Shown: positions 37,537 through 57,343, counted from the stretch's first letter. The stretch: 64,000 nt of DNA from Candidatus Humimicrobiia bacterium (GCA_049647085.1 JBARXA010000018.1:25677-89676), one strand, 5' to 3'. Program-made: numbers and translations. The notes: generated by a model from the letters alone, not told the origin.

Positions 37537-37576
37537 TTTCCCTCCTGAAAATCAAGAGCTTTTACATTTAAATTCT

Positions 37577-37816
37577 CTAATATAATTTTTTTATAGTGAT
37601 TGCTTTTTGAGGACATTTTTCTAAACAAAGATTACAAAATACGCATTCATCTTCATTTTCCTCAATAATTGAAATTATTCCATTATTCTCTTCTAATTTT
37701 TCAAATTTAAAAATTTCAACAGGACAAACCTCTTCACATATTTTACAATTTTTAACTTTTTTACATTTATTATTATTAATTTCTACTTTTACAAACATTC
37801 CCATAATTTTCACCAT
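37577..37816 (-). CDS. 2[4Fe-4S] ferredoxin (79 aa)
   Basis: The Cys motifs are CKKVKNCKICEEVCP...CVFCNLCLEKCP. Confidence 0.7.
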   Translation of the reverse strand: MVKIMGMFVKVEINNNKCKKVKNCKICEEVCPVEIFKFEKLEENNGIISIIEENEDECVFCNLCLEKCPQKAITIKKLY

Positions 37817-37831
37817 AAAAATAAAATATTT

Positions 37832-38728
37832 TTAGCTTAATGATTCTTTGACATAATCAACTAATTGAGTTAGTGTATCCGCTACCAATACGCCAGCTCT
37901 TTTAAATGCTTCAATTTTTCCTTTAGCTGTTCCCTTTCCTTTTTGCACAATGACACCAGCATGTCCAAATCTCATTCCAGGCATCTCATCAACAAATCTT
38001 CCACCTATAAAAGCTATTATAGGTTTAGAATATGAATACTTTAAAATATAACTTGCTGCGTCTTCTTCTTGTGTACCACCCGGTTCACAAAAAAGTACAA
38101 CGGTTTTTGTTTGAATATCTTTTTCAAAAAGAGGAAGCAGTTCTCTAATTGTCATACCCACAATTGGATCTCCACCAACACTGATGCATGTACTTTGCCC
38201 TATCCCATTACTGGTTAATAAATTTGCAAGCTCTGTTGTCATTCCACCACTGGTAGAAGCAATTCCAACTGGACCTATCATATATGATTTTTTTGTTTCG
38301 ATTTGTGGTCCGCCAATAGCTCCAACCTTAGATTTACCAGGTGAAATTATTCCTAATGAGTTTGGTCCTATAACTTTTGTACCTTTTTGTTCTGCAAAAT
38401 CTAAAATCAAAACTACATCTTTTTTTGGGATTCTCTCAGTAAAAATTACAATAAGCTTTATATTTGCGTCTATTGCTTCTAATGCAGCATCTTTTGCAAA
38501 GGGAGGAGGAACAGATATAATTGATACATTTGCTATAAAGTTTTTCACTACATCATTAACACAATCAAAAACAGGGATTCCATGAATAGTCTGTCCTCCT
38601 TTTCCTGGAGTTACACCACCAACCACATTAGTACCATAATCAAGCATATATTTAGTAAATAATGATGCTTCTCTCCCTGTAATTCCCTGAACCAAAACTC
38701 TTATTTTCTCATCTATTAAAATACTCAA
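37832..38728 (-). CDS. NDP-forming acyl-CoA synthetase alpha subunit (SucD / CcsB-like, CoA-binding, phospho-His)
   Basis: VLVQGITGREAS (CoA-binding Rossmann) and the phospho-histidine loop MRFGHAGVIV are present. Confidence 0.8.
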   Translation of the reverse strand: MSILIDEKIRVLVQGITGREASLFTKYMLDYGTNVVGGVTPGKGGQTIHGIPVFDCVNDVVKNFIANVSIISVPPPFAKDAALEAIDANIKLIVIFTERIPKKDVVLILDFAEQKGTKVIGPNSLGIISPGKSKVGAIGGPQIETKKSYMIGPVGIASTSGGMTTELANLLTSNGIGQSTCISVGGDPIVGMTIRELLPLFEKDIQTKTVVLFCEPGGTQEEDAASYILKYSYSKPIIAFIGGRFVDEMPGMRFGHAGVIVQKGKGTAKGKIEAFKRAGVLVADTLTQLVDYVKESLS

Positions 38729-38776
38729 TTAATTCTCCATTTATAAAAAAATAAATCAATCGTTTATTATCTTTAA

Positions 38777-39970
38777 TTAGGAAATCATTTCTACTGCTGC
38801 TTTTGCAGCTTGATCTATAGAATAACTCCTATCCATATATTTTATTTTGTATTTTTTAAGAATTTTGTATCCATCCTCTTCATATGCACCTGCACTTCTA
38901 AATAAAACTGGATATTCACTTAGGTTTATATCTAATTCAACCATTGCTAAAATTACCCCTCTAGCTACTAAGTCCACTCTTGTGTTATTTAAAACATTAG
39001 TTATAACTGCTAATCCTTTTATGCCTGGTTTTTTTAGAATCAGTTTTGTTAGTTCTTTTACTTTCTTAACTGTAGGGTTACCACCAATTTCACAATAATT
39101 TGCTGGTTTTCCACCATGATATCTTATAGCATCAAAGATAGTAAGGGATGCCCCACCTCCTCCGATTAATAATCCCAAATCTCCATCAAACTCAACAACT
39201 CTGCCTGCAACACCTCTGTGGTCAATCTTATCAATTTTTTCTGCTTCTATTTCAAACTTTGTGGGAATTCTTGGGCTATCTTTCCTGATTGGTATTCCTA
39301 ATTGCTCTAATTCTTTATGTCTATAAAGAGCTTCCTGTTCAAGTTCTAAATGGGCATCTGCTGCAATTAACTTTCCATCTTGAGTCAATATCAAAGGATT
39401 TATTTCTGCTAAATCACAATCATATTTTTTAAAAATATTAAATAATTTAACAGCAATACCTGCAGCCTTAAACATATCTTTTGATTTCAGCCCCATATTT
39501 TTTGCAAGTAATTTTCCTTGATAGTTTTGAATTCCCCAGATCATATTAACAGGTAAAGTAAAAACCTTTTCTGGATATTTTTTAGCTATTTCATTGATGT
39601 CAATACCACCAAGAGAAGATGAAATTATTACAGGAGTTTTTTGAGATAGGTCATAAGTTATTCCAAGAAAAAGCTCAGAAGATGGAAACAGTCTTTCTTC
39701 TACTAAAACCTTTCTTACTTCAAATCCCTTTATTCTTAATGAAAATATCTTTCTTGCTAATTGCCTTGCCTCTTTGGGGTTTTTTGCAAATGATATTCCT
39801 CCAGCCTTTCCTCTACCAGTAGCTAAAACTTGAGCTTTTATAGCAACTTCTTTTTTAAGATTATCTGCAATCTTTTCTACTTCACCTGGAGTTGAAGCTA
39901 AGTAACCCTCGGGTATAGAGATAGCCTCTTTTTTAAATATAATTTTGCTTTCATACTCATATAATTTCAT
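38777..39970 (-). CDS. NDP-forming acyl-CoA synthetase beta subunit (SucC / CcsA-like ATP-grasp)
   Basis: MKLYEYESKIIFKKEAISIP...KAQVLATGRGKAGGI carries the ATP-grasp motifs. It has the 397-aa SucC size. Confidence 0.8.
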   Translation of the reverse strand: MKLYEYESKIIFKKEAISIPEGYLASTPGEVEKIADNLKKEVAIKAQVLATGRGKAGGISFAKNPKEARQLARKIFSLRIKGFEVRKVLVEERLFPSSELFLGITYDLSQKTPVIISSSLGGIDINEIAKKYPEKVFTLPVNMIWGIQNYQGKLLAKNMGLKSKDMFKAAGIAVKLFNIFKKYDCDLAEINPLILTQDGKLIAADAHLELEQEALYRHKELEQLGIPIRKDSPRIPTKFEIEAEKIDKIDHRGVAGRVVEFDGDLGLLIGGGGASLTIFDAIRYHGGKPANYCEIGGNPTVKKVKELTKLILKKPGIKGLAVITNVLNNTRVDLVARGVILAMVELDINLSEYPVLFRSAGAYEEDGYKILKKYKIKYMDRSYSIDQAAKAAVEMIS

Positions 39971-40279: not shown

Positions 40280-40705
40280 ATGGTTGCAAGGAAAAGAAAA
40301 TTAAAAATAGTGCTTGGTGTAATTGGCTCTGATGTTCATGCAGTTGGAAATAAAATACTCGAAAATGTATTGACTGAAGAAGGATTTAAAGTAATAAATA
40401 TTGGAGTTCTCTCCCCTCAAGAGGATTTTATAAATGCTGCAATTGAAACTGCAGCAGATTTGATTGTTGTTTCATCATTATATGGTCATGGTGAAATAGA
40501 TTGCAGGGGAATGAGGGAAAAATGTATTGAAGCTGGAATTGGTGATATCCCATTATATGTTGGTGGAAATTTGGTTGTAGGAAAGAAGGATTTTACTGAA
40601 GTTAAAAAGATTTTTGAAGAGATGGGGTTTAATAGGGCTTATCCTCCTGGAACATCTCCTCAACAATTAATTGATGATATAAAAAAAGATTTTAATAATA
40701 AGTAG
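40280..40705 (+). CDS. glmS: glutamate mutase sigma (S) subunit, B12-binding
   Basis: [16 protein letters not shown]...[34 protein letters not shown] matches clostridial GlmS/MutS nearly motif-for-motif (DxHxxG B12 motif). Confidence 0.9.
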
Positions 40706-40718
40706 GAGATTTTTTATT

Positions 40719-42107
40719 TTGAGAACAGCACTTTTGATTGATTTTGGAAGTACATTTACCAAATTGGTAGCAATAGATTTAGAAAAAGAAATATTCTTAG
40801 GAAGCTCATCTCACCCCACTACAGTAGATGATGATGTGATGATTGGATTTCAAGATGCATTAGATGTATTGAATAAAAAGATATCTAAAAAAGATGAATA
40901 TTATAATTTAAAATTAGCTTGTAGTAGTGCTGCTGGAGGTTTAAAAATTGTAGCAGTAGGCTTAGTTCCTCTCTTAACTTCACAAGCAGCTAAAATTGCA
41001 GCTTTAGGAGCTGGTGGAAAAGTTTTAAAAGTTTACAGCTATAAATTAACTGCAGACGAAAGAGATGAAATTGAAATTTTAAAACCGGACTTAATACTGC
41101 TTTCAGGTGGAACTGATGGAGGAAATGAGAAGGTAATAATTCATAATGCAAAGGTTTTAAGCCAACTAAAGATAGATGTTCCAATTGTTTATGCTGGGAA
41201 TAAATGTTCAGCAACTATAGCAAAGAGAATTTTAAAAGAAAATAAAAAGTCTGTATCGATAATAGAAAATATCTTACCTGAGTTAAATTATTTAAATATA
41301 GAACCAGCTAAAGAATTAATAAGAAAACTCTTTCTATCAAGTATAATCAAAGCAAAAGGTCTTTCAAAAAGGATGGATTTCTTATCAAGTGTCTTAATGC
41401 CTACCCCATCAGCTGTTTTAAAAGCTGGAGAATTATTAGCAAAAGGTACAGATAACGAGGAAGGTATTGGGGATTTAATGTTAATTGATGTTGGTGGAGC
41501 TACTACTGATGTTTGCTCATATTCATTAGGACTACCAGGTACAGGTAGTTTTGTTGTAAAGGGTCTTCCTCAACCTTATACAAAAAGAACAGTTGAGGGT
41601 GATTTAGGAATTCGTTTTAGTGCTATGAATCTTTTAAATACAGCCAAAAAGGAAAATTTTATGAAGAAATGGAAAATAAAATTAAAGGACCTGGATAAGA
41701 AAGTTGAAAAGCTATCAAGAAATATTAATTTTATTGCTGAAGACAAGAAAGATATTGAGGTAGATAAGTTACTATCTGCAATATCTACTAAAATTGCAAT
41801 AAATAGGCATGTAGGAAAGTTTCAAACAAAATATACACCAATAGGTCCAGTAAATATTTTATATGGGAAAGATTTAAGAGATGTCCCTACTGTATTAGGA
41901 ACTGGTGGGGGTGTGATAAAAGCTAAGAATCCAAAGTCTATTTTGGAAAAATCTATATTTGATGAAGATGAGTCATACATATTAAAGCCAAAATCTCCAA
42001 AATTTTTATTAGATAAATATTATATAATGTTTGCTGTTGGACTTTTAGCTCAAAAAATGCCAGACTTAGCTTTAAGGTTATTAAAAAAGAATCTCATTTA
42101 TATATAA
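40719..42107 (+). CDS. glmL: glutamate mutase-associated protein L (GlmL/MutL, ATPase-like putative reactivase)
   Basis: This 462-aa protein lies between S and E as in the Clostridium tetanomorphum/cochlearium operons. It has an actin/Hsp70-like fold (DFGSTFTK, GG.K, DVGGATTD). Confidence 0.8.
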   Translation: MRTALLIDFGSTFTKLVAIDLEKEIFLGSSSHPTTVDDDVMIGFQDALDVLNKKISKKDEYYNLKLACSSAAGGLKIVAVGLVPLLTSQAAKIAALGAGGKVLKVYSYKLTADERDEIEILKPDLILLSGGTDGGNEKVIIHNAKVLSQLKIDVPIVYAGNKCSATIAKRILKENKKSVSIIENILPELNYLNIEPAKELIRKLFLSSIIKAKGLSKRMDFLSSVLMPTPSAVLKAGELLAKGTDNEEGIGDLMLIDVGGATTDVCSYSLGLPGTGSFVVKGLPQPYTKRTVEGDLGIRFSAMNLLNTAKKENFMKKWKIKLKDLDKKVEKLSRNINFIAEDKKDIEVDKLLSAISTKIAINRHVGKFQTKYTPIGPVNILYGKDLRDVPTVLGTGGGVIKAKNPKSILEKSIFDEDESYILKPKSPKFLLDKYYIMFAVGLLAQKMPDLALRLLKKNLIYI

Positions 42108-42142
42108 AAATAAAAAATTTAGAATATATTGGGTGGTGAGGA

Positions 42143-43597
42143 TTGGAGATAAAAAATATCAGGTGGGAAGAAGAGGAGTTTCTTAAAAAGAGAAAAGAAG
42201 TGCTAAAGAGCTGGCCAACAGGTTCTCAAGTAGATTTAGAGGAATCGATAAATTATCATAGAGCCATTCCAAAAAACAAAGTTTCAAAATTGGTTCTTGA
42301 AAAGGCAAAAAATGAGGGAAGAACCTTAACTCAACCAAGGGCAGGAGTTGCTTTAATAGATGACCATATTGAACTTCTTCGATTTTTAGAAAAGGAGGGG
42401 ATGGCTGACCTCCTACCAACTACAATTGATAGCTATACCAGGTTAAATAAATATGAGGAAGCTCAGAAAGGAATAGAGGAGAGTATTAGGTTGGGCAGGT
42501 CGATGTTAAATGGTTTTCCTGCTGTAAATCATGGAGTTAAAGGTTGTAGGAAAGTTTGTGAGTCTGTTAATGTACCAGTTGAAGTTCGTCACGGAACTCC
42601 TGATTCAAGATTATTAGCAGAGATAACCTTGGCAGGAGGTTTTACAGATTTTGAAGGTGGAGCCATAACTTATAATATTCCTTATTCAAAAAATGTTCCA
42701 ATTGAGAAAAGTATTAGAAATTGGCAATATGTTGATAGATTAATAGGATATTATCAATATAATGGTGTATCTATAAATAGGGAATCTTTTGGACCCTTAA
42801 CAGGAACTTTAGTTCCTCCATGTATCTCACATGCAGTTTCTATTTCAGAAGCATTACTTGCTGCAGCTCAAGGTGTAAAAAGTATAAGTGTTGGATATGG
42901 ACAATGTGGAAATTTGATTCAGGATATAGCTTCTATAAAATCATTATCAATTATAACAGAGCAGTATCTAAAAGAATTTGGATTTACTGATATTTTAGTA
43001 ACTACAGTATTTCATCAATGGATGGGAGGCTTTCCTCAAGATGAAGCTGAAGCATTTGCTGTAATTTCATGGGGAGCAGCAGCTGCTGGTCTTGGAGGTG
43101 CAACAAAAGTTATTGTAAAAACTCCACATGAGGCATATGGTATTCCTACTAAAGAAGCAAATGCTCTTGGGCTTAGAGCAACAAAACAGATTTTAAATAT
43201 GGTAAAAGATCAGAAGCTAACAGAAATTGAGTTGATTGAAAAAGAGATTGATATCATAAAAGAGGAAACAAAGTCAATTTTAGAAGCTGTATTGAATTTA
43301 GGAAAAGGTGATATTGCTATTGGTCTGGTAAGAGGATTTGAAGCAGGAGTAATTGATATTCCATTCGCTCCGAGTCGTTTTACCAAAGGAAAAATAATTC
43401 CAGTAAGAGATAATAATGGTTCCATCAGATTACTGAATGTTGGAAATCTACCTTTCTCAAAAAAAATAAGAAATTTTCACAAACAAAAGTTAGAGGAAAG
43501 AGGAAAAGCTGAAAATAGGAAACCATCATTTAAAATGGTAGTGGATGATATATATGCTATAAGCAGAGGTTATTTAGTTGGAAGACCAGAAAAATAA
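42143..43597 (+). CDS. glmE: glutamate mutase epsilon (E) subunit
   Basis: The 484-aa TIM-barrel subunit directly follows glmL. Its size and position are canonical. Confidence 0.85.
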
Positions 43598-43654
43598 ATT
43601 TTTATTAACTTTAAAAAATTTGATAACTTTATTAGAAGGGGAGGTTAATAAATA

Positions 43655-44890
43655 ATGAAAATAAAAAAAGTAGTTGCTTCAAAGGGATTTGCAGGTTTCT
43701 ATTATGATGATCAAGCAGCTATAAAATCTCATGCAAAACATGATGGATTCGCCTATTCAGGAGAACCTATTACTCCAGGCTTTAGTACAATAAGGATTGC
43801 TGGTGAAAGCATTTCAGTCATGTTAGTTTTGGATGAAGGTAGAATTGCATATGGTGATTGTGTAGCTGTTCAGTACTCTGGAGCAGCTGGTAGAGATGCA
43901 CTTTTTTTAGCTGATGATTATCTTCCTATTATAAATGAAAAAATTGCACCATTAATGGTTGAACGTGAGATAGAAAATTTCAAGAATATGGCTGAAGAGT
44001 TAGATAATTTAAAAATTGATGGGGAACGATTACATACTGCACTTCGATATGGAATAACCCAGGCTATTTTGAATGCTGTTTCAAGAAAAAAGCATATTAC
44101 TATGGCTGAGGTAATATCCCAGGAATATGGTATAGAAATTCAAGAGGAACCAGTTCCAATATTTGCTCAGAGTGGGGATGATAGGTATAACAATGCAGAT
44201 AAAATGATAATAAAAGGAATTCAGGTTCTTCCTCATGGACTGATAAACAATGTTGAAGAGAAGTTAGGTAGGAGAGGGGAGAAATTAATGGATTATCTAT
44301 CATGGCTTAGAACAAGAGTGGTTCAATTAGGTAAACCTGATTATAATCCTGTATTTCATCTTGATGTTTATGGAACATTTGGACAGGCATTTAATAATGA
44401 TATGGGAACAATTGCAAAATATATCATGAACTTAGAACGGATCTCTCAACCATATCATCTCAGGATTGAGGGACCTGTTGATGCAGGAAGTAAAGAAGGC
44501 CAGATAAAATCTATGCGAGAGTTAAGAACAGAATTAAAGAAAATAGGAAGTAAGACTGAAATAATAGCTGACGAGTGGTGTAATACATTTGAGGACATTA
44601 AAGACTTTGTACATGGAGAGGCTGCTGATATGATTCAGATTAAGGCTCCAGATTTGGGAGGAATAAATAATACTATAGAGGCTATTTTATTTTGTAAGAA
44701 ACATGGTGTGGGAGCGTATCTTGGTGGAAGTTGTAATGAAACGGATCGTAGTGCTCGAATATGTGCTCATATAGCTTTAGCAACAGGACCATGTCAGATT
44801 CTTGCAAAACCTGGGATGGGAGTAGATGAGGCTGTGATGTTAATAAACAATGAGATGCAAAGAACTCTTACACTTATAAAAAATAGATAA
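43655..44890 (+). CDS. mal: methylaspartate ammonia-lyase (beta-methylaspartase)
   Basis: It aligns end-to-end with C. tetanomorphum MAL: GFAGFYYDDQAAIK...GESISV.LVL..G...GDC.AVQYSGA.GRD, QIKAPDLGG and KPGMGVDE. Confidence 0.9.
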   Translation: MKIKKVVASKGFAGFYYDDQAAIKSHAKHDGFAYSGEPITPGFSTIRIAGESISVMLVLDEGRIAYGDCVAVQYSGAAGRDALFLADDYLPIINEKIAPLMVEREIENFKNMAEELDNLKIDGERLHTALRYGITQAILNAVSRKKHITMAEVISQEYGIEIQEEPVPIFAQSGDDRYNNADKMIIKGIQVLPHGLINNVEEKLGRRGEKLMDYLSWLRTRVVQLGKPDYNPVFHLDVYGTFGQAFNNDMGTIAKYIMNLERISQPYHLRIEGPVDAGSKEGQIKSMRELRTELKKIGSKTEIIADEWCNTFEDIKDFVHGEAADMIQIKAPDLGGINNTIEAILFCKKHGVGAYLGGSCNETDRSARICAHIALATGPCQILAKPGMGVDEAVMLINNEMQRTLTLIKNR

Positions 44891-45064: not shown

Positions 45065-45445
45065 TTGGATTTTCCAGAAGAACTTTATTATTCAAAAGAC
45101 CATGAATGGGCGAAAATTGAGGGAAATATAGTAATTGTGGGAATAACCGATTATGCTCAGGATGCATTGGGAGATATAGTATTTTTAGAACTTCCACCAG
45201 TTGGTACAGAAACCCAGGTTCATGTGCCATTTGCAACAATTGAATCAGTAAAATCAGTTTCAGATGTATACTCACCAGTAACTGGTAAAATAGTGGAAGT
45301 AAATGATGCTATTACAGATGCACCTGAAGTGATAAATCAGGATCCATATGGTGGGGGTTGGATGGTTAAAATTGAGATGAATAACCCAGATGAGATAAAA
45401 GATTTAATATCTGCTGAGGAATATCAGAAATCTACAGAAGAATAA
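45065..45445 (+). CDS. gcvH: glycine cleavage system H protein
   Basis: YSKDHEWAKIEGN is present. The lipoyl-Lys context is ESVKSVSDVYSP. The start is TTG with a strong RBS GGAGGGAGG. Confidence 0.85.
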   Translation: MDFPEELYYSKDHEWAKIEGNIVIVGITDYAQDALGDIVFLELPPVGTETQVHVPFATIESVKSVSDVYSPVTGKIVEVNDAITDAPEVINQDPYGGGWMVKIEMNNPDEIKDLISAEEYQKSTEE

Positions 45446-45559: not shown

Positions 45560-46909
45560 ATGGATTACACTCCACATTCTAATAAAGAAATCAAGGAAAT
45601 GCTCTCTTTTTTGGGGATAAAATTTTTGAAGGATTTGTATAATAATATTCCAGACAAAATTAAACAAAAAAAAGAGCTAAAATTACCTGAACCATTAAGT
45701 GAAATTGAGCTTTTAGGAAGGTTAAAATTTATAAGTAAAAAAAATATAAGTACAGATAATAAAATTTCATTTCTTGGAGCAGGTAACTATGATCACTTTA
45801 TACCTTCTGTTGTAAATTACATAATCTCCAAACCAGAATTTTATACTGCTTATACTCCATATCAGTCAGAATTAAGTCAGGGAATTTTACAATCCATGTT
45901 TGAGTATCAGACAATGATGTGTGAATTAACTGGCATGGATATCTCTAACATCTCACTTTATGATGGTGCAACTTCTGTTGCAGAAGCTGCAAATATGGCT
46001 ATATCTATAAATAAAAAGAAAAAAATCTTAATATCAGAAACTATGCATCCAGAATATCGTCAAGTACTAAAAACCTATATGAAGCCAAGAAAAATAGAGG
46101 TTTTTGAAATTCCTATGAAAGATGGTATTACTGATAAGGGGCAAATAAAAGAAAATTTAATAGATGAGTATTCATGTTTAATAATTCCTCAACCAAATTT
46201 TCTTGGGAATTTAGAACCCATAGATGAGATATTTTCAATTTTATCGGGTAGTAATACTTTGGCTATCGCTTGTGTTAATCCATTATCTTTAGCATTACTT
46301 AAACCCCCAGCTGATTTTGGAGCCGATATTGTTGTTGGAGATGGTCAAATCTTAGGTAATCCACAATCATTTGGAGGACCATCGTTTGGATTTTTAACTT
46401 GTAAAAAGAAATATTTAAGAAAAACACCTGGTAGAATTGTAGGTCAAACAGTGGATAGTGCTGGAAATATCGGCTATGTTCTCACCCTTCAAACAAGAGA
46501 ACAACATATCAGAAGAGAAAAGGCTACTTCAAATATATGTTCAAACCAATCTCTAAATGTATTAGCAGCTTGTGTTTATCTTTCATATATTGGAAGAGAT
46601 GGTTTATATGAAATTGCAGAACTTTGCTATAAAAATGCTCATTATCTTTTTCAAAAGCTAATAGCTATTAAAGGAATAAACCCAACATTCAATTCTAAAT
46701 TTTTCAATGAATTTGTCGTTTATATTGATTTAGATTCAACTGAATTGAAAAAAATATTATCAAAAAAAGGAATTTTAGGACCAATATGTTTAGAAAAATG
46801 GTACCCATCTCTCAAAAAAAGATACCTTTTTGCTGTTACAGAAAAAAGAACAAAAGATGAGATGGATTTATTAATAGATACATTAAACAAAGCATTAAAG
46901 GTAAAATAA
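45560..46909 (+). CDS. gcvPA: glycine dehydrogenase (decarboxylating) subunit 1
   Basis: The N-terminal half of split P-protein has the fold-type I PLP N-domain and characteristic YTPYQ.E.SQG.LQ. Confidence 0.85.
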   Translation: MDYTPHSNKEIKEMLSFLGIKFLKDLYNNIPDKIKQKKELKLPEPLSEIELLGRLKFISKKNISTDNKISFLGAGNYDHFIPSVVNYIISKPEFYTAYTPYQSELSQGILQSMFEYQTMMCELTGMDISNISLYDGATSVAEAANMAISINKKKKILISETMHPEYRQVLKTYMKPRKIEVFEIPMKDGITDKGQIKENLIDEYSCLIIPQPNFLGNLEPIDEIFSILSGSNTLAIACVNPLSLALLKPPADFGADIVVGDGQILGNPQSFGGPSFGFLTCKKKYLRKTPGRIVGQTVDSAGNIGYVLTLQTREQHIRREKATSNICSNQSLNVLAACVYLSYIGRDGLYEIAELCYKNAHYLFQKLIAIKGINPTFNSKFFNEFVVYIDLDSTELKKILSKKGILGPICLEKWYPSLKKRYLFAVTEKRTKDEMDLLIDTLNKALKVK

Positions 46910-47006: not shown

Positions 47007-48458
47007 ATGAATGATAGGTTAATATTTCAATTACTAAATTTAGAAAAAGGTAAGCAAATTTTACCAACTCTATCAGAGGAGATATCTTCTATTAAGCTTT
47101 ATATTCCAAAAAACTTAAAACGTAAAAAAACCCCTAAACTACCACAGATTAGCGAACCACAGTTGATTCGACATTTTGACAAGCTTTCAAAGAAGAATTT
47201 TGGAGTTGATAATGGATTTTATCCATTAGGTTCATGCACTATGAAATATAACCCCAAAATCAATGAAGAGATATCCAGGCTAGAGAATTTTGTCAATATT
47301 CACCCATATCAAGATGAAGAAGATATACAAGGTGCTCTCCAGCTCATGTATGAGCTAGATGTACTTTTATGTGAAATAACGGGAATGGATAAATTTACAT
47401 TACAACCATCAGCTGGAGCTCATGGAGAATTAACAGGTTTATTTATTATAGATGCTTATCATAGAGAAAAAGGAAATAAAAGAAAAAATATAATAATTCC
47501 TGATTCTGCTCATGGAACTAATCCAGCAAGTGTTACAATGGCAGGCTATAATACGGTTACAGTTGATTCGGATGAAAAGGGAAGAGTAGATATAAAAAAA
47601 TTAAGCAAACTTTTAGATGAAAATACTGCAGGATTGATGTTAACAAATCCAAATACACTGGGACTTTTCGATGAGAATATTTTAAAAATCTCTAAAATGG
47701 TACATGATGCTGGTGGATTAGTTTACTATGATGGAGCAAACCTGAATGCAATAATGGGAATAGCTAAGCCAAGAGATATGGGTTTTGACATTGTTCATCT
47801 AAATCTTCATAAAACCTTCTCAACACCGCATGGAGGAGGAGGTCCAGGCTCAGGACCTATTGGAGTGACTAAAGAACTTTCTAAATTTCTTCCTGTGCCT
47901 ACTGTAGAGGTAAATAGTAAAGGGAGATACTATCTTAACTACGAGAAAAAAGATTCAGTTGGTAAAGTAAAAGCTTTTTATGGGAATTTTAATGTTTTAA
48001 TCAAAGCCTATTCATATATTTTATCTTTAGGGGCAAAAGGGTTAAAAAGGGCAAGTCAATTAGCAGTTTTAAATGCCAATTATTTAAAGAAACATTTAAG
48101 TAAATATTATTATCTCCCATATCCAGAGATTTGTATGCATGAATTTGTTATCTCAGCTATCTGGCAAAAAGAAAAGGGAATAAGAGCTTTAGATATTGCT
48201 AAAAGACTAATGGATTTTGGTTTTCACCCACCAACAATTTATTTTCCTCTGATTGTAAAGGAAGCACTCATGATAGAGCCAACAGAAACAGAAAATAAAG
48301 AAACTCTGGATATGTTTATTAAAGCGATGAAACAAATAGCAAAGGAATCAGATAAAAACCCAGAAATTTTAAAATCTGCTCCACATAAAACTCCAATAAA
48401 AAGACTGGATGAGGTAAAAGCAGCAAAAGACCTTATATTAAAATATGATTTTAACTAA
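47007..48458 (+). CDS. gcvPB: glycine dehydrogenase (decarboxylating) subunit 2
   Basis: This C-terminal half of P-protein has PLP-Lys in [18 protein letters not shown]. Confidence 0.85.
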
Positions 48459-51024: not shown

Positions 51025-51103
51025 TGGTGGAGCATACGGGAATCGAACCCGTGTTTCAGGCGTGAGAGGCCTGTGTCCTTGACCCCTAGACGAATGCTCC
51101 ACC
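51025..51103 (-). tRNA. tRNA-Glu (anticodon CTC), CCA encoded
   Basis: The reverse complement GGTGGAGCATTCGTCTAGGGGTCAAGGACACAGGCCTCTCACGCCTGAAACACGGGTTCGATTCCCGTATGCTCCACCA has the typical tRNA-Glu D-loop and anticodon loop CT-CTC-AC. Confidence 0.8.
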
Positions 51104-51255: not shown

Positions 51256-51975
51256 TCAAATTCCATAGTTTTTAAAAAAGCTTTCTTGTTCTAATTTCAT
51301 GTCTCTTATTTTATTTGCATATTTTTTTACTTCTCTATCTGCAATTTTAGTTGGTTCAGGGATTCTGGTAATGGACATACCTAAAACTAATTTTATAGAA
51401 GTATCTAAACTCACTCGATGACCTATTGAAACAAATACTGGAGAAATATTATCTTTGGTTCTTAATACCACTCCAATTATTTCACCCTTATCATATAGAT
51501 ATGAGTATGAGCCCTTCTTTTTTTCAGGCATATTAAAGTCACCTATTAGTCTACTTTTTGCACACCCTATTGTTGGTATATCCAATAATACTCCAACATG
51601 ACATGCAAGTCCCATTCTTCTGGGATGAGCATATCCCTGTCCATCTAAAATCAATAAATCTGGTAAATTTTCTAACTTTTCAAAGCAGGAAAGAACAACT
51701 GGCACTTCTCTAAAAGCTAAAAGGGTTGGAATATATGGAAAATTTATTGGTTCAGAACTATTTATGACATCTATAATTCTCATATCAGGATAACTAAAAA
51801 TTACTAATGAAGCACAACTCAGGTTTTTTTCTTTTACGAATCCAACATCTACACCTGCAATTGTTTTTAGAGAATCAAAATCATCAAAAGTTTTTATTTT
51901 ATCTCTAAGTTTATGCTGGATTGATATTGCTTGCTTTGGAGTTACATTCCATGCATGAACCTTTATTATTTTCAC
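51256..51975 (-). CDS. nfi: endonuclease V (deoxyinosine 3' endonuclease)
   Basis: AGVDVGFVKEK...PYIPTLLAFREVP...LDGQGYAHPRRMGLACHVGV...IGCAKSRL are present. Confidence 0.8.
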   Translation of the reverse strand: MKIIKVHAWNVTPKQAISIQHKLRDKIKTFDDFDSLKTIAGVDVGFVKEKNLSCASLVIFSYPDMRIIDVINSSEPINFPYIPTLLAFREVPVVLSCFEKLENLPDLLILDGQGYAHPRRMGLACHVGVLLDIPTIGCAKSRLIGDFNMPEKKKGSYSYLYDKGEIIGVVLRTKDNISPVFVSIGHRVSLDTSIKLVLGMSITRIPEPTKIADREVKKYANKIRDMKLEQESFFKNYGI

Positions 51976-51979
51976 AATA

Positions 51980-54900
51980 TTACTCCATTAAGGGTCTCTC
52001 AGTTAATCCTTTTTCAACCATAAATCGAGGAAGTATTGTAGCTTTTTCATGCACTAAAACTTTTTCCCCTAATTTCAATTGAATTTTAGGTTTTTCTTCC
52101 TCAAATTTTAATCTATTTACTTGCTCCTCTTTTTCTAATTCTTTGCCATGTGGTAATGCAAAAATACCTATTTCTGTTCCTTCTTGAGTGAACTTTTTAT
52201 CAACCAAAGCGAGACCTATCTGGTATCCTTCAGCATTTGGTGCACAACTTGTAACATTTCCTATATATTGACCAATTATACTAACAACTACATCACCATT
52301 TTTAACTCTTTTAATACCCTTTCGATTCATTTTAAATCTAATCATATCCATCTTTCTTGATTTTTCTCTCTCCAAAAGTTTTTCCCTTCCTATGAAGAAA
52401 GGTTTATGAAATTTAATATATGGACCAAATCCTGCTTCAATGGGAGAGATGTTATATCTTCCAGCTAAGTCATTTCCAAAAAGGGGTAACCCAGCCTCTA
52501 TCCTTGTTGAATCTCTAGTTGCCAAACCACAAGGTTTTATTCCAAATTGCTTCCCTTTTTCTAACAGAAGATTCCATAGTCTTGCTGCGTCATCTGGATG
52601 TATATATAATTCATATCCAATATCTTCTCCTGTATAACCTGTTCGAGATATGAGCATTTCAATTCCAGCAAGATTTGTTTCAATAAATTCTGCTCTCTTT
52701 ATTCTTTTAAGTTCTCTCTTTTTTTCTTCATCTGTTGTAAGGCTTTTCAATAATTCTAATGAATTTGGACCTTGCAAAGCTATATCTATTTTCTGATCAT
52801 TTCCAGATGATTCATCTTTTAGATTTCTTATTATTACTGAGTTTTCAATCTCTTTTAAAGTATTATCTCTATCAATAATATATTTTTTAGAGTTAACGGC
52901 TTTTAACCACTTAAAATCTTTATCTTCATTTACAGCATTAGCTATCAGCATATATTTATCCTTTTTTCTGCGATAGATTATTACATCATCAATGATTTTT
53001 CCATCTAAATCTAAGAGATAAGTGTATTGTGACTGTCCATCTGAAATCCATTTAATATAATTTGATGTCACTATGTCTAAGAAGTTTATACAATTCTCAC
53101 CAGAAACTTCTATTACACTCATATGTCCAACATCAAATAAACCTACTGTCTCTCTTACTGCTCTATGTTCTTCAGATATACTTGTGTACCAAACTGGCAT
53201 CTCATAACCTGCAAAATTTATGATTTTATTGGTCAATTTTCTATGTTCCTCATAAAGTGGTGTTCTCTTTGGATTTTCCTTCTGTCTTTTTAAAATTTCT
53301 TCTTCAACTGATTTCAAGGGGAACTCTTTTTTATTTAGAACTGTATTTTTCTTGGTTTTTTCGCTATTAGCTTTCACTTTATTAAATTCTCTTTCAGAAA
53401 TAAAATATGATTGCTCATCCTTGAAGCTTTTTTCATCAAGAAGCTTACCGTGAAAGTATTTTTTAAATTTATTTTGACCAACAAAATACAATTGTTTTAA
53501 TACAAATAAATTTTTCAAATCATATAAACTATTTTTTAAACTAATTTCATATAAACTAACTCCATCAATTTTTTTCTTCTTTTTATCATTTCTTGAAAGA
53601 TCTTCATATATTGGAAAACCATTATCTTGTCTTAATTTTTCTCTTACCTTAAATCCTGCTGGAACTATATTAAATTCTTTCCCCTTTTCTAATAATAGAT
53701 TCCATAACTTAACTGCATAATTTGGATTTGTATAAAAATCATAATGCAGTTCTTCTTCAAAGTCTTCTTTATTATTATCTTCAATGTGATCATTGCCATC
53801 ACAATCATCATTAGCTTTATTATTATCACTACTGCTATTACTAGTAGTTTTGTATCCGTTCCTTGAGATTAAGCATTCAATTCCATCAATTATATATTTA
53901 ACAAATTGAAATTTTTTAATCTCAGCAAGCTTTTGGTTAATGCTTTTTATTACATCTTTTGAGTTAGGTCCATGAAGAGAAATTGCAACCATTTTCAAAT
54001 TCTCGTCTTCAATCTCCTTTAAATCATCAACCTTGACTGGTCCTTCCACTTTCTTGAATATCTCATCATCAAAAAGTATATAACCATCCGATATATTTCT
54101 CAGCCAGGTTTTTACGTAATCTGTATTAGATGGATTTGTCATAAGAATGTAGGTGTGTCTATCAAATTTATCTGGTTCAAGTTGATGGATTAAAACATCA
54201 TCAATTACCACTGCCTCTTTATCTAATAAAAAACTCCTTTGACTATAGCCTGGTTTTAATTTTGATATATCATTAGTAGTAATTTGCTGAAGAAAAGGTT
54301 TTGCTCTCTCACCAATAACTTTAATAAGACCATAATCGGACATATCTACCAGGACTGCTGAATTTTTTGAAGCCAAAATCTCATTTTTAATATCATTGTA
54401 TTTTGAAGGAATTAACCAACCATTTTTTTCCTCCAATTTTGCACCTAATTTCTTATGTTCATCTAATAGTGCAGTTTTTTTAACATTAGAATTTTCATTT
54501 AAAAACCAATAATGAGGATAACCGGATTTTTCAAATTCTTCAGTTTCAATTTCGCTTACTAACTTTGCAACATCTTTTTTTATCTCTTCAAATTTTGATA
54601 AATCCATCTTACCTCTCGGAAGTTGTCCTAACATTCCAATATAGAAATATGGATGTATATTTGTTAATATTCTATAAATAAATAAGGCAAGTCTTTTTAT
54701 TTGCTCCCTTGTTATTCCTCGCTGTGTTATCCATGGAGTACCTATTCTGATTCCACTGGCATCAGCTGCTGTTAAGTCCCCTGGTATGGTGTTTTTATTA
54801 GTGACAATTCCACATAAATCTAATATTCTTGCTGCTACTTCACCTTTTAAAGGAAGTCCTGTATAAGTTTTAATAGCATTTAAATCAATAACCACAAGAT

Positions 54901-56002
54901 GGGTATCTGTTCCATTATAAGAAAGCTTAAGTCCTAATTTTTGTAATTCATCAGCAAGTGTCTTTGCGTTTTCAGCAATTCTTTCCTGGAGTTTTTTAAA
55001 TTCTGGTGTTTGAGCTATTTCAAAAGCTACTGATATAGCAGCAAATTTGTTTGCATGTGGACCACCCTGTTCACCTGGAAAAACAGTTGTATCTATAATA
55101 TTAGCTTTATCTTCATCTGTTGTAAGAATAACTGCACCTCTAGGACCACATATAGTCTTATGGGTAGTGAAAGTTATAACATCTGCATAGCCAATAGGGC
55201 TTGGATATACACCAGCAATAGCTAATCCTGCACAATGTGCTATATCTGCAAATAGTATTGCTTTTCCAGGAACTGCATCTGCTATCTCCCTGAACTTCTT
55301 CCAATCTGGAGCCCAGGGATAAGAAGAGTATCCCGCAATTATCATTTTAGGCTTATATTCTATTGCTAATTTTTTTATCTCATCATAGTCTAATTTCTCA
55401 GTTACTCTGTTTACTTTATAGGAGATAATATTATATCTTTTACCTGATATGTTGAATTCAGAACCATGAGTTAGGTGCCCACCTTCAGGAAGCGCCATTC
55501 CCATTACTATGTCACTAGGTTCCACAAAAGCTTCATATACAGAATTGTTCGCAATGGATCCAGAAAGGGGCTGTATATTTACAAATATCTGATCAGCACT
55601 AATTTTTATCTCACTATTTTCTTTATCATTTGTAGCAAAACATTTAGCTATTCTTCTTTGAGCTAAACTCTCTAAAACATCTATATATTCAATTCCTTTG
55701 TAAAATCTCCTATCCGCATATCTTCGATAGTATGATAACTGATGACTTATATCATTTAACAGTTCTATTTTATCTCTAGTCATCTTAACTGAGGGATATC
55801 CTTCGCAATATACATTGTTAAATTGCGAACCTAATGCCTTAAGAACCGAAGATGGAGCAAAACTTTCTGAAGGAATTAGTATGATTTTTCTTTGTTGTCT
55901 TTCTTTTTCAAACTTAATTAGCTTAGAAATATAAGGATCAATCTCAGATAAATCCTTATATAAAATTGACTCAATATATTTTTTTTCTTCATTATCTGTC
56001 AT
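51980..56002 (-). CDS. giant fusion protein: serine hydroxymethyltransferase + degenerate aminomethyltransferase (GcvT-like) module + complete aminomethyltransferase (GcvT) module
   Basis: Residues ~35-470 are SHMT (LIPSESFAPSSVLKALGSQFNNVYCEGYP; PEGGHLTHG; PLP-Lys in TFTTHKTICGPRGAVIL). Residues ~510-800 are a GcvT-like N/central domain (LLDEHKKLGAKLEEKNGW...VLVDMSDYGLIKV...TGEAGYE-equivalent region). It has a Ser/Asn/Asp-rich insertion and no C-terminal barrel. A K-rich linker (~801-912) follows. Residues ~913-1287 are a complete GcvT (TPLYEEHRKL...FAGYEMPV.Y...GLFDVGHMS...RTGYTGEDIGYE...KPCGLATRDSTRIEAGLPLFGNDL... plus the GCV_T_C barrel). A 50-aa C-terminal tail ends the protein. Confidence 0.8.
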   Translation of the reverse strand: MTDNEEKKYIESILYKDLSEIDPYISKLIKFEKERQQRKIILIPSESFAPSSVLKALGSQFNNVYCEGYPSVKMTRDKIELLNDISHQLSYYRRYADRRFYKGIEYIDVLESLAQRRIAKCFATNDKENSEIKISADQIFVNIQPLSGSIANNSVYEAFVEPSDIVMGMALPEGGHLTHGSEFNISGKRYNIISYKVNRVTEKLDYDEIKKLAIEYKPKMIIAGYSSYPWAPDWKKFREIADAVPGKAILFADIAHCAGLAIAGVYPSPIGYADVITFTTHKTICGPRGAVILTTDEDKANIIDTTVFPGEQGGPHANKFAAISVAFEIAQTPEFKKLQERIAENAKTLADELQKLGLKLSYNGTDTHLVVIDLNAIKTYTGLPLKGEVAARILDLCGIVTNKNTIPGDLTAADASGIRIGTPWITQRGITREQIKRLALFIYRILTNIHPYFYIGMLGQLPRGKMDLSKFEEIKKDVAKLVSEIETEEFEKSGYPHYWFLNENSNVKKTALLDEHKKLGAKLEEKNGWLIPSKYNDIKNEILASKNSAVLVDMSDYGLIKVIGERAKPFLQQITTNDISKLKPGYSQRSFLLDKEAVVIDDVLIHQLEPDKFDRHTYILMTNPSNTDYVKTWLRNISDGYILFDDEIFKKVEGPVKVDDLKEIEDENLKMVAISLHGPNSKDVIKSINQKLAEIKKFQFVKYIIDGIECLISRNGYKTTSNSSSDNNKANDDCDGNDHIEDNNKEDFEEELHYDFYTNPNYAVKLWNLLLEKGKEFNIVPAGFKVREKLRQDNGFPIYEDLSRNDKKKKKIDGVSLYEISLKNSLYDLKNLFVLKQLYFVGQNKFKKYFHGKLLDEKSFKDEQSYFISEREFNKVKANSEKTKKNTVLNKKEFPLKSVEEEILKRQKENPKRTPLYEEHRKLTNKIINFAGYEMPVWYTSISEEHRAVRETVGLFDVGHMSVIEVSGENCINFLDIVTSNYIKWISDGQSQYTYLLDLDGKIIDDVIIYRRKKDKYMLIANAVNEDKDFKWLKAVNSKKYIIDRDNTLKEIENSVIIRNLKDESSGNDQKIDIALQGPNSLELLKSLTTDEEKKRELKRIKRAEFIETNLAGIEMLISRTGYTGEDIGYELYIHPDDAARLWNLLLEKGKQFGIKPCGLATRDSTRIEAGLPLFGNDLAGRYNISPIEAGFGPYIKFHKPFFIGREKLLEREKSRKMDMIRFKMNRKGIKRVKNGDVVVSIIGQYIGNVTSCAPNAEGYQIGLALVDKKFTQEGTEIGIFALPHGKELEKEEQVNRLKFEEEKPKIQLKLGEKVLVHEKATILPRFMVEKGLTERPLME

Positions 56003-56164: not shown

Positions 56165-57343
56165 TTATTTTTTATTGTTTTTACATGCCAAGGCTGATTC
56201 AACTAAAGCATATAATCCTCCTGAAACCAAGGAATGACCTCCAAGAACTATTGGTATTGAAGCATTAATTGCTTCGTAAGTAAACTCTCTTAGAAAAGTT
56301 TCAGATATTTTTTCAGGTTTTAGAAGGTCAGAGTAGAAGCGATCATTAGCTGATGGCCACATCTTGAAATGGGAAAGTATTACTCGGCTGTCTATAAAAG
56401 CTGCATCTGCAATTTGATCTATAATTTCAAAGAATTTTTTAACCCCAAATTCTTGCAAGTAAAATCCTAACAAAGAGCGAACTTCTTCTCTTTTTTGACG
56501 ACCACTAGCTCTCATTCCTCTCTCTTCAGCAAATAACCTAACTCTGCAAGCAGTATTATTCTCTAAATATGACCAAACATCTGAATTTGTTCTTCCAGCA
56601 ATAAGGACATTTGAATTTTCTATAGTAAAATATTTTAATGCCTTTTCTAATCTTGTTGTATTGATATCAAGACTTTCTATATAGTTTTTAATATTTTTAC
56701 TGAGTGCTGGGTGATTTTTAATAGTTAAAAGATCGATAGGAGTGTCAATGTCAAGTTGCGTTGCTGCATTTCTAGGAAGGGATATATCCTTAAAATTGCA
56801 ATTATTTTTTAAAATCCATGCAATCTCATTATCATTATTGAAAGGTTCAATTGAATTAACAATGTTTGCTGGTGAAAAAGCTATAAAGTCAGTTGAATAA
56901 AGGTTATTTGTTATAAGGATCTTTTCTTTATCTGATATCCTATCTTTATTTAATTTATTTACTATTTTATCTTTATCTAATACTGTTTTTATAATGTTTT
57001 TTAAATCCTCTATTTTTAGGAGAACGCCACTTCCTCCACCCATATAAAACAACTTTTCTATTTTGTATTTATTTATAAGTTCTTTAAGTTTTTTACCAAA
57101 ATGAAATTTTTTTTGAGGTTTATCAGGTTCTATAATTATGGATTTCCCTTTTAATTCATTTATTAAAACTTCTGAATTAGTTGATAATACAATTTTATCT
57201 ATAGTTTTTTCTTTTTCTTTAATTTCTAAAAACTTCTCAATTGTATCTTTTGTAGACAATTCAATTGCTCTTGATACCATCTTAACTGGTTCACTTTTAT
57301 TCTTTTTTCCAGCCATAATTAAAATATCTACTTTTGGATCCAT
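56165..57343 (-). CDS. hypothetical protein, possible N-terminal nucleotidyltransferase-like fold
   Basis: This 392-aa protein has no confident family assignment from motifs. It is co-oriented with and immediately upstream of the SHMT-GcvT fusion. Confidence 0.4.
   Translation of the reverse strand: MDPKVDILIMAGKKNKSEPVKMVSRAIELSTKDTIEKFLEIKEKEKTIDKIVLSTNSEVLINELKGKSIIIEPDKPQKKFHFGKKLKELINKYKIEKLFYMGGGSGVLLKIEDLKNIIKTVLDKDKIVNKLNKDRISDKEKILITNNLYSTDFIAFSPANIVNSIEPFNNDNEIAWILKNNCNFKDISLPRNAATQLDIDTPIDLLTIKNHPALSKNIKNYIESLDINTTRLEKALKYFTIENSNVLIAGRTNSDVWSYLENNTACRVRLFAEERGMRASGRQKREEVRSLLGFYLQEFGVKKFFEIIDQIADAAFIDSRVILSHFKMWPSANDRFYSDLLKPEKISETFLREFTYEAINASIPIVLGGHSLVSGGLYALVESALACKNNKK

Follow-up and report, generated by a model that had tools for sequence, protein, structure and literature searches.

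An open reading frame joining serine hydroxymethyltransferase to two GcvT-like modules, a predicted bifunctional folate enzyme, in a Candidatus Humimicrobiia bacterium

The stretch of DNA analysed here (the window; 64,000 nucleotides from Candidatus Humimicrobiia bacterium) carries on its minus strand, at 51980..56002, one unbroken ORF of 1340 aa plus stop, with an ATG start, zero internal stops and an AGGAG Shine-Dalgarno-like motif about 8 nt 5' of the ATG. The ORF encodes, in this order, a complete serine hydroxymethyltransferase (SHMT), a GcvT-like module that lacks the C-terminal barrel (T1), a linker, a complete GcvT (T2) and a tail; all module coordinates below are on the minus strand. 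An earlier reading of the DNA from sequence alone (the sequence-only reading) had proposed this single-ORF, three-module fusion, and the proposal was confirmed by the uninterrupted frame, by HMM matches and by recurrence across assemblies. Domain annotation with profile HMMs supported one PF00464 and two PF01571 domains, with PF08669 weak and below its gathering score. Furthermore, the motifs named in that reading (TTHKTICGPRG, GGHLTHG, VDMSDYG, GLFDVGHMS, RTGYTGE and KPCGLATRDSTRIEAGL) were all located, and the Ser/Asn/Asp-rich (S/N/D-rich) insertion and Lys-rich linker that it described are both present.

The SHMT catalytic module (aa 1-446; 54665..56002) matched PF00464 at 4e-119 / 2e-120 in a profile search of the translated ORF, scored 407.7 against NCBIfam NF000586, above the cutoff of 335, and matched Thermus thermophilus SHMT (2dkj) at 4.5e-91. 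The active-site motifs, namely TTHKT with the PLP Schiff-base Lys282, GGHLTHG, DIAH and SGIRIGTP, align with those of 2dkj and are near-invariant in the fusion-family consensus. The module shares the complete fold-type I PLP enzyme with GlyA (T. thermophilus 2DKJ, Escherichia coli 1DFO), but adds two family-conserved insertions (aa ~72-98 and ~124-137) and a conserved C-terminal extension of about 50 aa (aa 447-500; 54503..54664). This extension, delimited by alignment and by partial NF010094 coverage, carries the motif NIxPFxYIGxxGxLxRGKxDL ... GYPHY and runs into T1. The fusion SHMT resembles the long-SHMT profile NF010094, yet scores 300 against a cutoff of 735.

T2 (aa 906-1286; 52145..53287) is a full GcvT, as the sequence-only reading had it. 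On its own it matched PF01571 at 2.3e-75, and the GcvT NCBIfam scores were 432.9 for NF001567 (cutoff 300) and 372.9 for TIGR00528 (cutoff 235.85). The C-terminal barrel family PF08669 (GCV_T_C) was detected weakly, its 18-20 bits falling short of the gathering score (25.9); the barrel was nevertheless accepted because T2 aligns with residues 6-346 of the 365-residue Bacillus subtilis GcvT 1yx2 and residues 2-347 of 1woo, and because GcvT structures matched the AF2 model, which covered T1 and T2 only, with a Foldseek target-normalised TM-score (TMt) of 0.89-0.92. Residues M961, D1006, Y1123, E1131 and R1163 of T2 correspond to Met56, Asp101, Tyr197, Glu204 and Arg233 of human GcvT (HsGcvT), which have THF-binding or catalytic roles (PMC9551070). 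Compared with canonical GcvT/AMT proteins (Thermotoga maritima 1WOO, B. subtilis 1YX2, E. coli 3A8I), T2 shares the three-domain fold and the THF/catalytic residues, but it is preceded covalently by SHMT and a degenerate GcvT copy, has a sub-threshold GCV_T_C match, carries an insertion of about 20 aa ahead of ALQGP (aa ~1041-1070) and ends in a conserved tail of about 50 aa (aa 1287-1340; 51983..52144; family alignment and AF2). The equivalents of the five human residues, together with that of Asn117, which we take from the human T-protein literature to belong to the key set, are kept in 120/120 homologues of the fusion.

T1 (aa 501-860; 53423..54502) comprises GcvT-like domains 1 and 2, as delimited by residue statistics, AF2 and matches of the module alone to PF01571 (3.8e-44) and B. 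subtilis GcvT 1yx2 (4e-26). The GCV_T domain is present, the C-terminal barrel is absent and the set of invariant THF/catalytic residues is incomplete; no PF08669 match was found in Pfam, and T1 ends at a KPYFVGQ-like motif that is followed by the disordered, poorly conserved Lys-rich linker (aa 861-905; 53288..53422; alignment and AF2). In this ORF the key positions of T1 are Y557 (Met56-equivalent), D602, Y717, D755 (Glu204-equivalent) and R787, and 30 aa are inserted between Y717 and D755, within the folate hairpin that spans the Tyr197 and Glu204 equivalents. The inserted S/N/D-rich, low-complexity segment (aa 721-748; 53759..53842) is lineage-specific, being a gap in 94% of class A homologues, and has a pLDDT below 50. 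Among class A T1 modules (n=82), the Met56-equivalent is Met in 42/82, the Tyr197-equivalent Tyr in 53/82 and the Glu204-equivalent Glu in 53/82, and the Asp101-equivalent is Asp in 68, Glu in 13 and Gln in 1. Near-invariant in the same set are the first Asp of the DD pair (82/82), the Asn117-equivalent (81/82) and the Arg233-equivalent (81/82). In class B homologues (n=38) the fusion is kept, but T1 is cut to a remnant of about 100 aa: domain 1 of T1 is deleted, the Tyr/Glu/Arg region is gone and Ser stands at the Asp101 position in 31/38. All that class B retains of T1 is a conserved core at aa 561-660 (54023..54322; GERAKPFLQ..IDD..TNPSN..VKTWLRNISDGYILFDDEIFKKVEGPVKVDD), delimited by alignments and dN/dS. 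These data agree with the sequence-only reading, which saw in T1 a GcvT copy that lacks the barrel and looks catalytically degenerate.

T1 is 33-40% identical to T2 modules, versus 21-32% to the GcvTs of B. subtilis, T. maritima and E. coli, and the insertion of about 20 aa occurs in T1 and T2 at the same site. The dN/dS ratio was 0.11-0.33 for T1 and 0.07-0.13 for SHMT and T2, with a value of 0.11 for the T1 core (versus orthologue L001). T1 seems to have arisen by tandem duplication of the T module and to have shed both the C-terminal barrel and the strict folate and catalytic residues; the purifying selection that acts on it, and its greater resemblance to T2 than to canonical GcvTs, lead us to read it as a duplicate that now has a structural role. 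A precedent is found in YgfZ/Iba57, which keeps the GcvT fold but no longer has the canonical residues that contact THF (PMC9551070); however, YgfZ/Iba57 is a free-standing, three-domain protein of Fe-S protein maturation, T1 is internal and without the third domain, and the sequence of T1 is nearer to T2 than to YgfZ.

It is unlikely, in our judgement, that T1 is instead a non-catalytic or weakly catalytic folate-binding module that relays polyglutamylated THF/CH2-THF between T2 and SHMT in true channelling. Such a role would suit the purifying selection on T1, its well-folded AF2 model (pLDDT >90 outside the S/N/D-rich insert), the near-invariant Asp, Asn and Arg positions and the Asp101-, Tyr197- and Glu204-like residues that most class A members have. 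However, Met56, Tyr197 and Glu204 are invariant in all THF-binding GcvT-fold proteins (PMC9551070) and vary in T1, and class B keeps the fusion after losing T1 domain 1 and the catalytic Asp. The sequence-only reading had raised THF binding as a possible role for T1; in the present protein the split hairpin, together with the Met-to-Tyr and Glu-to-Asp changes, argues against a normal folate pocket. In our reading, T1 is a folded domain that serves for spacing or docking and not as a third catalyst, and the pTM of 0.82 of the predicted model hints at a fixed orientation of T1 and T2. With T1 full-length in some lineages and about 100 aa long in others, the family shows clearly how a duplicated enzyme domain can become a structural element.

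The remaining genes of a glycine cleavage system lie in the same window on the plus strand: gcvH (45065..45445; 126 aa, lipoyl-Lys motif ESVKSVS, PF01597 at 2e-46), gcvPA for P-protein subunit 1 (45560..46909; PF02347 at 4e-131) and gcvPB for P-protein subunit 2 (47007..48458; PF21478 and PF02347). This cluster is 3.5 kb from the fusion, and no separate glyA or gcvT was found in the 64 kb, the fusion being the sole SHMT found there. Upstream, on the minus strand at 56165..57343, lies a conserved neighbour of 392 aa (U392), which matched no Pfam or NCBIfam family and of which the N-terminal half alone could be assigned a fold, that of a CofC/MobA-like nucleotidyltransferase. Across 80 fusion neighbourhoods, GcvH, GcvP and U392 were the only recurrent neighbours. 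At loci having at least 1.5 kb of downstream sequence, gcvH was located within 10 kb of the fusion in only 19/59, about a third, and in 10 of those 19 gcvH-gcvPA-gcvPB follows less than 400 bp downstream on the same strand, without another gcvT. The fusion, and with it T2, often occupies the gcvT slot directly 5' of gcvH-gcvPA-gcvPB. The window also encodes tdh-kbl (threonine to glycine) and methylaspartate genes, all above NCBIfam cutoffs; the methylaspartate glutamate-fermentation genes are directly 5' of gcvH-gcvPA-gcvPB, and peptidases are present as well, a context that points to the catabolism of glycine and amino acids. Searches for a glycine riboswitch upstream of the fusion, upstream of gcvH and in 10 operon-type loci found none, and induction by glycine therefore gains no regulatory support.

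Taken together, these data are best explained by a bifunctional folate enzyme that combines SHMT with the T-protein of the organism's glycine cleavage system (T2), with T1 as a structural duplicate between them (probability about 0.75). The SHMT module is predicted to catalyse the PLP-dependent reaction Ser + THF <-> Gly + CH2-THF, and T2 the reaction aminomethyl-H-protein + THF <-> CH2-THF + NH3 + reduced H-protein, for which the separately encoded GcvH and GcvPA/PB would be its partners; T2 may be the T-protein of its host or merely one of them. Because SHMT is an obligate dimer, the fusion would be expected to form a dimer with two T1 and two T2 modules, setting the SHMT:T ratio at 1:1. The probable gain is the co-localisation of two enzymes that draw on one THF/CH2-THF pool, and in the direction 2 Gly -> Ser + CO2 + NH3 the CH2-THF made by T2 would be used by SHMT and THF returned. 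The compound that SHMT and T have in common is THF/CH2-THF; the suggestion of the sequence-only reading that SHMT hands glycine straight to the fused GcvT was imprecise: P-protein decarboxylates glycine onto H-protein, T-protein acts on aminomethyl-H-protein and GcvT accepts no glycine. Since glycine goes via the P- and H-proteins, the fusion could not pass it directly to the fused partner. The coupling of the glycine cleavage system (GDC) to SHMT is well known from plant mitochondria and glycine-utilising bacteria, and this non-covalent couple has the same activities, the same single THF/CH2-THF pool and the same balance (2 Gly <-> Ser + CO2 + NH3); its components, however, are separate proteins, whereas here T and SHMT are on one chain.

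Judged from the sequence, flux could be from glycine to serine, from serine to two C1 units or towards reductive glycine and serine synthesis. The last of these underlies an anabolic explanation, in which T2, with the H-, P- and L-proteins, makes glycine from CH2-THF, CO2 and NH3, SHMT uses another CH2-THF to turn glycine into serine, and the fusion arose so that both C1 units would come from a single pool. Such a role would accommodate the reversibility of the SHMT and T reactions, the many hosts among anaerobic Chloroflexota or Aerophobetes MAGs and the linkage of the fusion with gcvH and gcvP. However, fhs, folD, metF, formate dehydrogenase and glycine reductase were not recurrent in the 80 neighbourhoods, the glycine cleavage genes of the window have genes of catabolism around them (tdh-kbl, peptidases and those of the methylaspartate pathway), and the two modules would act in parallel on CH2-THF, leaving the fusion no cofactor-recycling benefit; we consider this explanation doubtful. 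A bolder and rather improbable idea is that SHMT-T1-T2 is a self-contained folate-cycling machine, in which T1 retains or relays polyglutamylated folate or docks H-protein so that the C1 unit from T2 reaches SHMT without a free folate pool, and U392 might supply or modify a cofactor for this system.

The same fusion was found as a single polypeptide in more than 120 protein clusters (90% identity) and at least 186 GTDB representatives of uncultured species, mostly Anaerolineae/Chloroflexota, but also Aerophobetes and some MAGs labelled Thermoplasmata. Orthologues were 92-97% identical (P0001, L003, L004) or about 80% identical (P0002-P0005, L001, L002), and more than 100 further fusion clusters were 49-58% identical. 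The phyletic-spread search thus places single-polypeptide SHMT-GcvT fusions in many species. An artefact in which a missed stop, a frameshift or a chimeric glyA-gcvT join made the fusion, which shorter architectures in the representative library had at first seemed to favour by resembling split variants, is excluded for practical purposes by the recurrence of the same ORF, at 49-97% identity, in dozens of assemblies that were made independently and come from various projects and phyla, by the conservation of the inter-module junctions under purifying selection, and by inspection of two short variants, which are genes cut by contig ends.

The fusion was also compared with dimethylglycine oxidase and its relatives (DMGO/DMGDH, sarcosine oxidase alpha, TMAO demethylase), in which a GcvT-like THF domain is likewise joined to a catalyst of C1 metabolism and which are weaker structural and sequence relatives of the fusion. 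In these enzymes the partner is an FAD oxidase or demethylase, iminium or formaldehyde is tunnelled to the folate site and H-protein is not involved; in the present fusion the partner is a PLP enzyme that has a folate site of its own, and T2, from its sequence, seems to depend on H-protein. No FAD/DAO domain was found in the ORF by profile search, and TIGR01372 (soxA) scored 188 against a cutoff of 1164, covering the GcvT part only. An assignment to the FAD-oxidase/GcvT fusions (DMGO, DMGDH, SoxA) was rejected, as the N-terminal FAD-dependent amine oxidase domain is missing.

C1 units enter folate metabolism mainly by two routes, SHMT and the glycine cleavage system, which together also make up the core of the reductive glycine pathway, now a target of engineering for the assimilation of formate and CO2. 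A widespread natural covalent fusion of SHMT and T-protein would amount to a Rosetta-stone confirmation of their physical coupling, supply engineers with a scaffold, a linker and a stoichiometry ready for use, and serve as a tractable system for testing folate channelling between two sites. The sequence-only reading had taken such a fusion to be undescribed; this held in that full-text literature searches found no description of an SHMT-GcvT fusion, but the protein is neither rare nor unseen, with many copies in databases. NCBI names these proteins 'glycine cleavage system aminomethyltransferase GcvT', and both activities are mentioned in the name of one JGI record; annotation pipelines that rely on the NCBI name may therefore score genomes with the fusion as lacking glyA.

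The minus-strand reading frame at 51980-56002 comprises 1340 codons with an ATG start and zero internal stops, and an AGGAG motif lies ~8 nt 5' of the start codon. Comparison of the whole fusion protein with Pfam returned one SHMT domain (PF00464, 4e-119) and GCV_T (PF01571) in separate stretches. The protein was also split into three pieces for a per-piece search: aa 1-500 matched PF00464 (2e-120); aa 490-910, holding the middle GcvT-like module (T1), matched GCV_T (3.8e-44) with no match to the C-terminal barrel; and aa 900-1340, holding the C-terminal module (T2), matched GCV_T (2.3e-75) and GCV_T_C (PF08669) at 20 bits, below the gathering score of 25.9. Furthermore, the fusion scored above the NCBIfam cutoffs of GcvT NF001567 (433 vs 300), TIGR00528 (373 vs 236) and SHMT NF000586 (408 vs 335). 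The single 1340-aa ORF with SHMT and two GcvT modules described in the sequence-only reading is therefore real, and the account of its architecture was good, as PF00464 occurs once, PF01571 occurs in both T1 and T2, PF08669 is sub-threshold in T2, and all of the motifs cited were found in the protein. Predicted promoters and terminators near the gene were no more frequent than in shuffled sequence and are thus uninformative in this 30% GC DNA, and the protein had no exact-sequence match in the contig index.

A protein search covering 5.8 billion proteins, clustered at 90% identity, recovered >120 clusters carrying both PF00464 and PF01571, whose proteins have 1090-1358 aa, share 49-92% identity with the query and come from assemblies of NCBI, JGI, ENA and Logan. 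In a GTDB scan of one genome per species, using patterns from the fusion-specific junction (alignment A1), a relative was encoded in 186 species, and tblastn demonstrated the order SHMT, T1, T2 in every locus of sufficient length. An artificial join or a missed stop codon, which had been named as a way in which the fusion could be spurious, is ruled out, because the same ORF is present in many independent assemblies and its junctions show conservation and selection. Used as query in an exhaustive HMMER search of 1.84 billion representatives (50% identity), the junction matched 69 of them at E<=1e-30; shorter hits resembled partial architectures. Natural split variants (SHMT-T1 alone or T1-T2 alone) were considered; both inspected cases, the homologues P0373 and P0341, proved to be genes cut by contig ends.

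The best 80 of the 186 loci (L003-L082) all came from MAGs, mostly of Anaerolineae and other Chloroflexota, with several Candidatus Aerophobetes, a few labelled Clostridia or Thermotogae, and five labelled Thermoplasmata archaea. The contigs that bear the latter five full-length homologues (L052, L053, L054, L058, L059) belong to MAGs with this archaeal label, which points to inter-domain transfer or else to binning or taxonomy errors. The nearest relatives (L003 and L004, 92-97% amino acid identity) come from cold-seep MAGs named "Actinomycetes bacterium" at NCBI. With the window at ~30% GC and with its gene content this label seems improbable, and it is probably untrustworthy.

The SHMT module (aa 1-446) aligned with solved bacterial SHMTs (T. 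thermophilus 2dkj at 4.5e-91) and retains the PLP lysine (TTHKT), GGHLTHG, DIAH and SGIRIGTP; every testable mark of SHMT membership was found in it. Two insertions relative to solved structures (aa ~72-98 and ~124-137) and a C-terminal extension of ~50 aa (aa 447-500, NIxPFxYIGxxGxLxRGKxDL...GYPHY) are conserved family-wide.

T2 (aa 906-1286) aligned end to end, barrel included, with the T-proteins of B. subtilis, T. maritima, P. horikoshii and E. coli, and an AlphaFold2 model of aa 495-1340 (T1 and T2; mean pLDDT 83.9, pTM 0.82) superposed on solved T-proteins with target-normalised TM-scores of 0.89-0.92, in agreement with its earlier description as a full GcvT. Among THF-binding members of the fold there is no variation at the positions of human GcvT Met56, Asp101, Tyr197 and Glu204; Arg233 is specific to GcvT, and Asp101 is essential for catalysis (PMC9551070). 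These residues were mapped through the motifs FDVSHM, IDD, GYTGEDGxE and ARD, the catalytic Asp being the second of the DD pair by T. maritima and E. coli numbering. The T2 equivalents of all five residues, together with Asn117, were invariant in 120/120 homologues, and T2 displayed every testable feature of a GcvT.

T1 (aa 501-860) corresponds to GcvT domains 1 and 2 and is predicted to be well folded (pLDDT >90), but it stops at a KPYFVGQ-like motif where the barrel would start, and is followed by a Lys-rich linker predicted to be disordered (aa ~855-887). Its S/N/D-rich stretch (aa 721-748) is disordered in the model, gapped in 94% of long homologues, and confined to the window's own lineage. 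Residue counts were made in 82 long and 38 short homologues. The Met56 equivalent is Met in 42/82 long and 25/38 short proteins (Tyr557 in the window); that of Asp101 is Asp in 68, Glu in 13 and Gln in 1 of the long proteins and Ser in 31/38 of the short (window Asp602). The remaining three positions are deleted in the short proteins; among the long, Tyr197 is matched by Tyr in 53/82 (window Tyr717), Glu204 by Glu in 53/82 (window Asp755), and Arg233 by Arg in 81/82 (window Arg787). The spacing from the Tyr to the acidic residue is 37 residues in the window T1 vs 7 in T2 and 6 in canonical GcvT. As T1 lacks the barrel and does not keep the folate residues invariant, it is, by its sequence, GcvT-like and not a GcvT, and the variability of the folate and catalytic positions across the 120 homologues supports the earlier suggestion that it is catalytically degenerate. 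Against an ~80%-identical orthologue (L001), dN/dS was 0.11 in the T1 core and 0.25 elsewhere in T1, compared to 0.12 in SHMT and 0.125 in T2; given these low values, T1 looks like a maintained structural element, and free drift is contradicted.

Module-wise BLAST and a 121-sequence alignment separated two classes. Class A (n=82, 1205-1358 aa) has a complete T1; in class B (n=38, ~1090-1124 aa), T1 is reduced to query aa ~555-660 and a short PDGxSLY...SKPYFVGQ element. In both classes, conservation within T1 is highest in the core retained by class B, which has the consensus GERAxPFLQ..IDD..TNPxN..VKxWLRGLSDGYIxFDxDDIFRKVEGPVVVxDL. T1 is 33-40% identical to T2 modules vs 21-32% to the GcvTs of B. 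subtilis, T. maritima and E. coli. T1 (core 54023-54322) and T2 (52145-53287) have in common an insertion of ~20 aa, placed after the NAxN...W helix and before the (A/S)LxGP strand (W-L-x-x-x-S/N-x-x-Y-I/L-x-F/I-D ... E-G-x-V-x-V/I-x-D-L), which those three GcvTs lack and which may be a candidate T1-T2 interface. In the simplest history, the T module would have been duplicated in tandem inside the fusion family, after which the upstream copy lost its barrel and its folate pocket decayed.

When all ORFs of the 80 loci and the window were clustered, only three families recurred beside the fusion, namely GcvH, both subunits (A and B) of GcvP, and an unannotated ~390-aa protein (U392; 56165-57343, minus strand, in the window). 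None of folD, fhs, lpd, sdaA and grd was a recurrent neighbour in the 80 loci. Among the loci with at least 1.5 kb downstream, gcvH lies within 10 kb of the fusion in 19/59, and gcvH-gcvPA-gcvPB follows on the same strand <400 bp downstream in 10 of those 19 (L025, L034, L038-L041, L056, L061, L071, L081). The ordinary operon order is gcvT-H-PA-PB, with gcvT directly upstream of gcvH; the fusion in those 10 loci stands exactly where gcvT normally stands. In the window, gcvH (45065-45445), gcvPA (45560-46909) and gcvPB (47007-48458) are 3.5 kb from the fusion, with lon, a tRNA gene and nfi between, and the 64 kb contain no separate gcvT or glyA. Because of this neighbourhood and the lack of a separate gcvT or glyA in the window, T2 is predicted to be a working GCS T-protein, the gcvH/gcvP linkage being the main evidence. 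No glycine riboswitch was detected at gathering score upstream of the fusion, upstream of gcvH or at the 10 operon-type loci, nor at E<=1 in two intergenic regions of the window.

Altogether, SHMT and a GCS-linked T-protein, both intact, are on one chain with a degenerate T-like domain between them, and we consider it likely (roughly three chances in four, judged from sequence) that the fusion is a bifunctional SHMT and GCS T-protein in which T1 is a degenerate spacer or docking domain. Specific claims of channelling or flux direction deserve much less confidence. P-protein decarboxylates glycine onto lipoyl-H, and T-protein moves the methylene from aminomethyl-H to THF. A direct hand-over of glycine from SHMT to GcvT, as previously proposed, is contradicted, because GcvT does not bind glycine and P-protein, not T-protein, takes it. 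We infer that folate is what SHMT and T2 share. The classical GDC/SHMT couple converts 2 Gly to Ser + CO2 + NH3; in that direction, SHMT would use the CH2-THF from T2 and give back THF, and the fusion would keep a small folate pool cycling locally with SHMT:T fixed at 1:1. In serine oxidation, or in reductive glycine and serine synthesis, SHMT and T2 would each act on the same folate species, in parallel, and co-localisation would be the only gain. As SHMT dimerises obligately, the holoenzyme probably consists of two chains, with two T1-T2 arms, and the pTM of 0.82 for the T1 and T2 model suggests that their packing is defined.

Dimethylglycine oxidase/dehydrogenase, the sarcosine oxidase alpha subunit and TMAO demethylase are known GcvT-fold fusions and came up only as weaker relatives: their folate domain is joined to an FAD oxidase or a demethylase, and none uses H-protein. 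YgfZ/Iba57 provides a precedent for the GcvT fold minus folate binding (PMC9551070). The earlier reading, which knew of no described SHMT-GcvT fusion, was borne out in the full-text literature searched, which covers few subscription journals. The fusion proteins are common in databases and under-annotated: NCBI names them "glycine cleavage system aminomethyltransferase GcvT", and JGI names them T protein or glycine hydroxymethyltransferase, with one record (P0119) giving both. Two well-known enzymes are thus joined in a widespread, apparently undescribed domain fusion, which also contains a duplicated pseudo-enzyme domain internally. Its logic is unsurprising, as functionally coupled enzymes fuse often, and it is at once an annotation trap, a natural scaffold for C1-pathway engineering and a test bed for folate channelling.

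The setting of the fusion in the window looks like amino-acid catabolism. A complete pathway of methylaspartate mutase S, accessory GlmL, mutase E and methylaspartate ammonia-lyase (40280-44890, plus strand), all above NCBIfam cutoffs, directly precedes gcvH-PA-PB, which is likewise on the plus strand, and indicates putative glutamate fermentation. The paired genes tdh and kbl (31431-33709, plus strand), which encode L-threonine 3-dehydrogenase and glycine C-acetyltransferase, also scored above NCBIfam cutoffs; these enzymes convert threonine to glycine and acetyl-CoA, and the route would supply glycine to GCS/SHMT. The window has further catabolic genes, among them that of an M32 carboxypeptidase. 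The start of nfi (endonuclease V; 51256-51975, minus strand) is 4 nt past the fusion stop codon, and nfi is probably co-transcribed with the fusion; this adjacency was seen in L001-L003, which belong to the window's own lineage, and not outside it. Between nfi and lon there is a tRNA gene (51028-51100, minus strand), and a second is at 31138-31220 (plus strand). U392 gave nothing significant against Pfam, NCBIfam or a PDB profile, and its lead came from fold search only; conserved beside the fusion and CofC-like, it is a separate loose end. The plus-strand ORFs at 7751-9304 (517 aa) and 17170-17931 (253 aa) matched no Pfam family at E<=1e-5. Finally, on the minus strand at 36754-39970, a citryl-CoA lyase (NF004866, 287 vs cutoff 245) adjoins SucD-like and SucC-like subunits, both below the succinyl-CoA ligase cutoffs, and these genes could be a citryl-CoA synthetase/lyase pair of the two-step ATP-citrate-lyase type.
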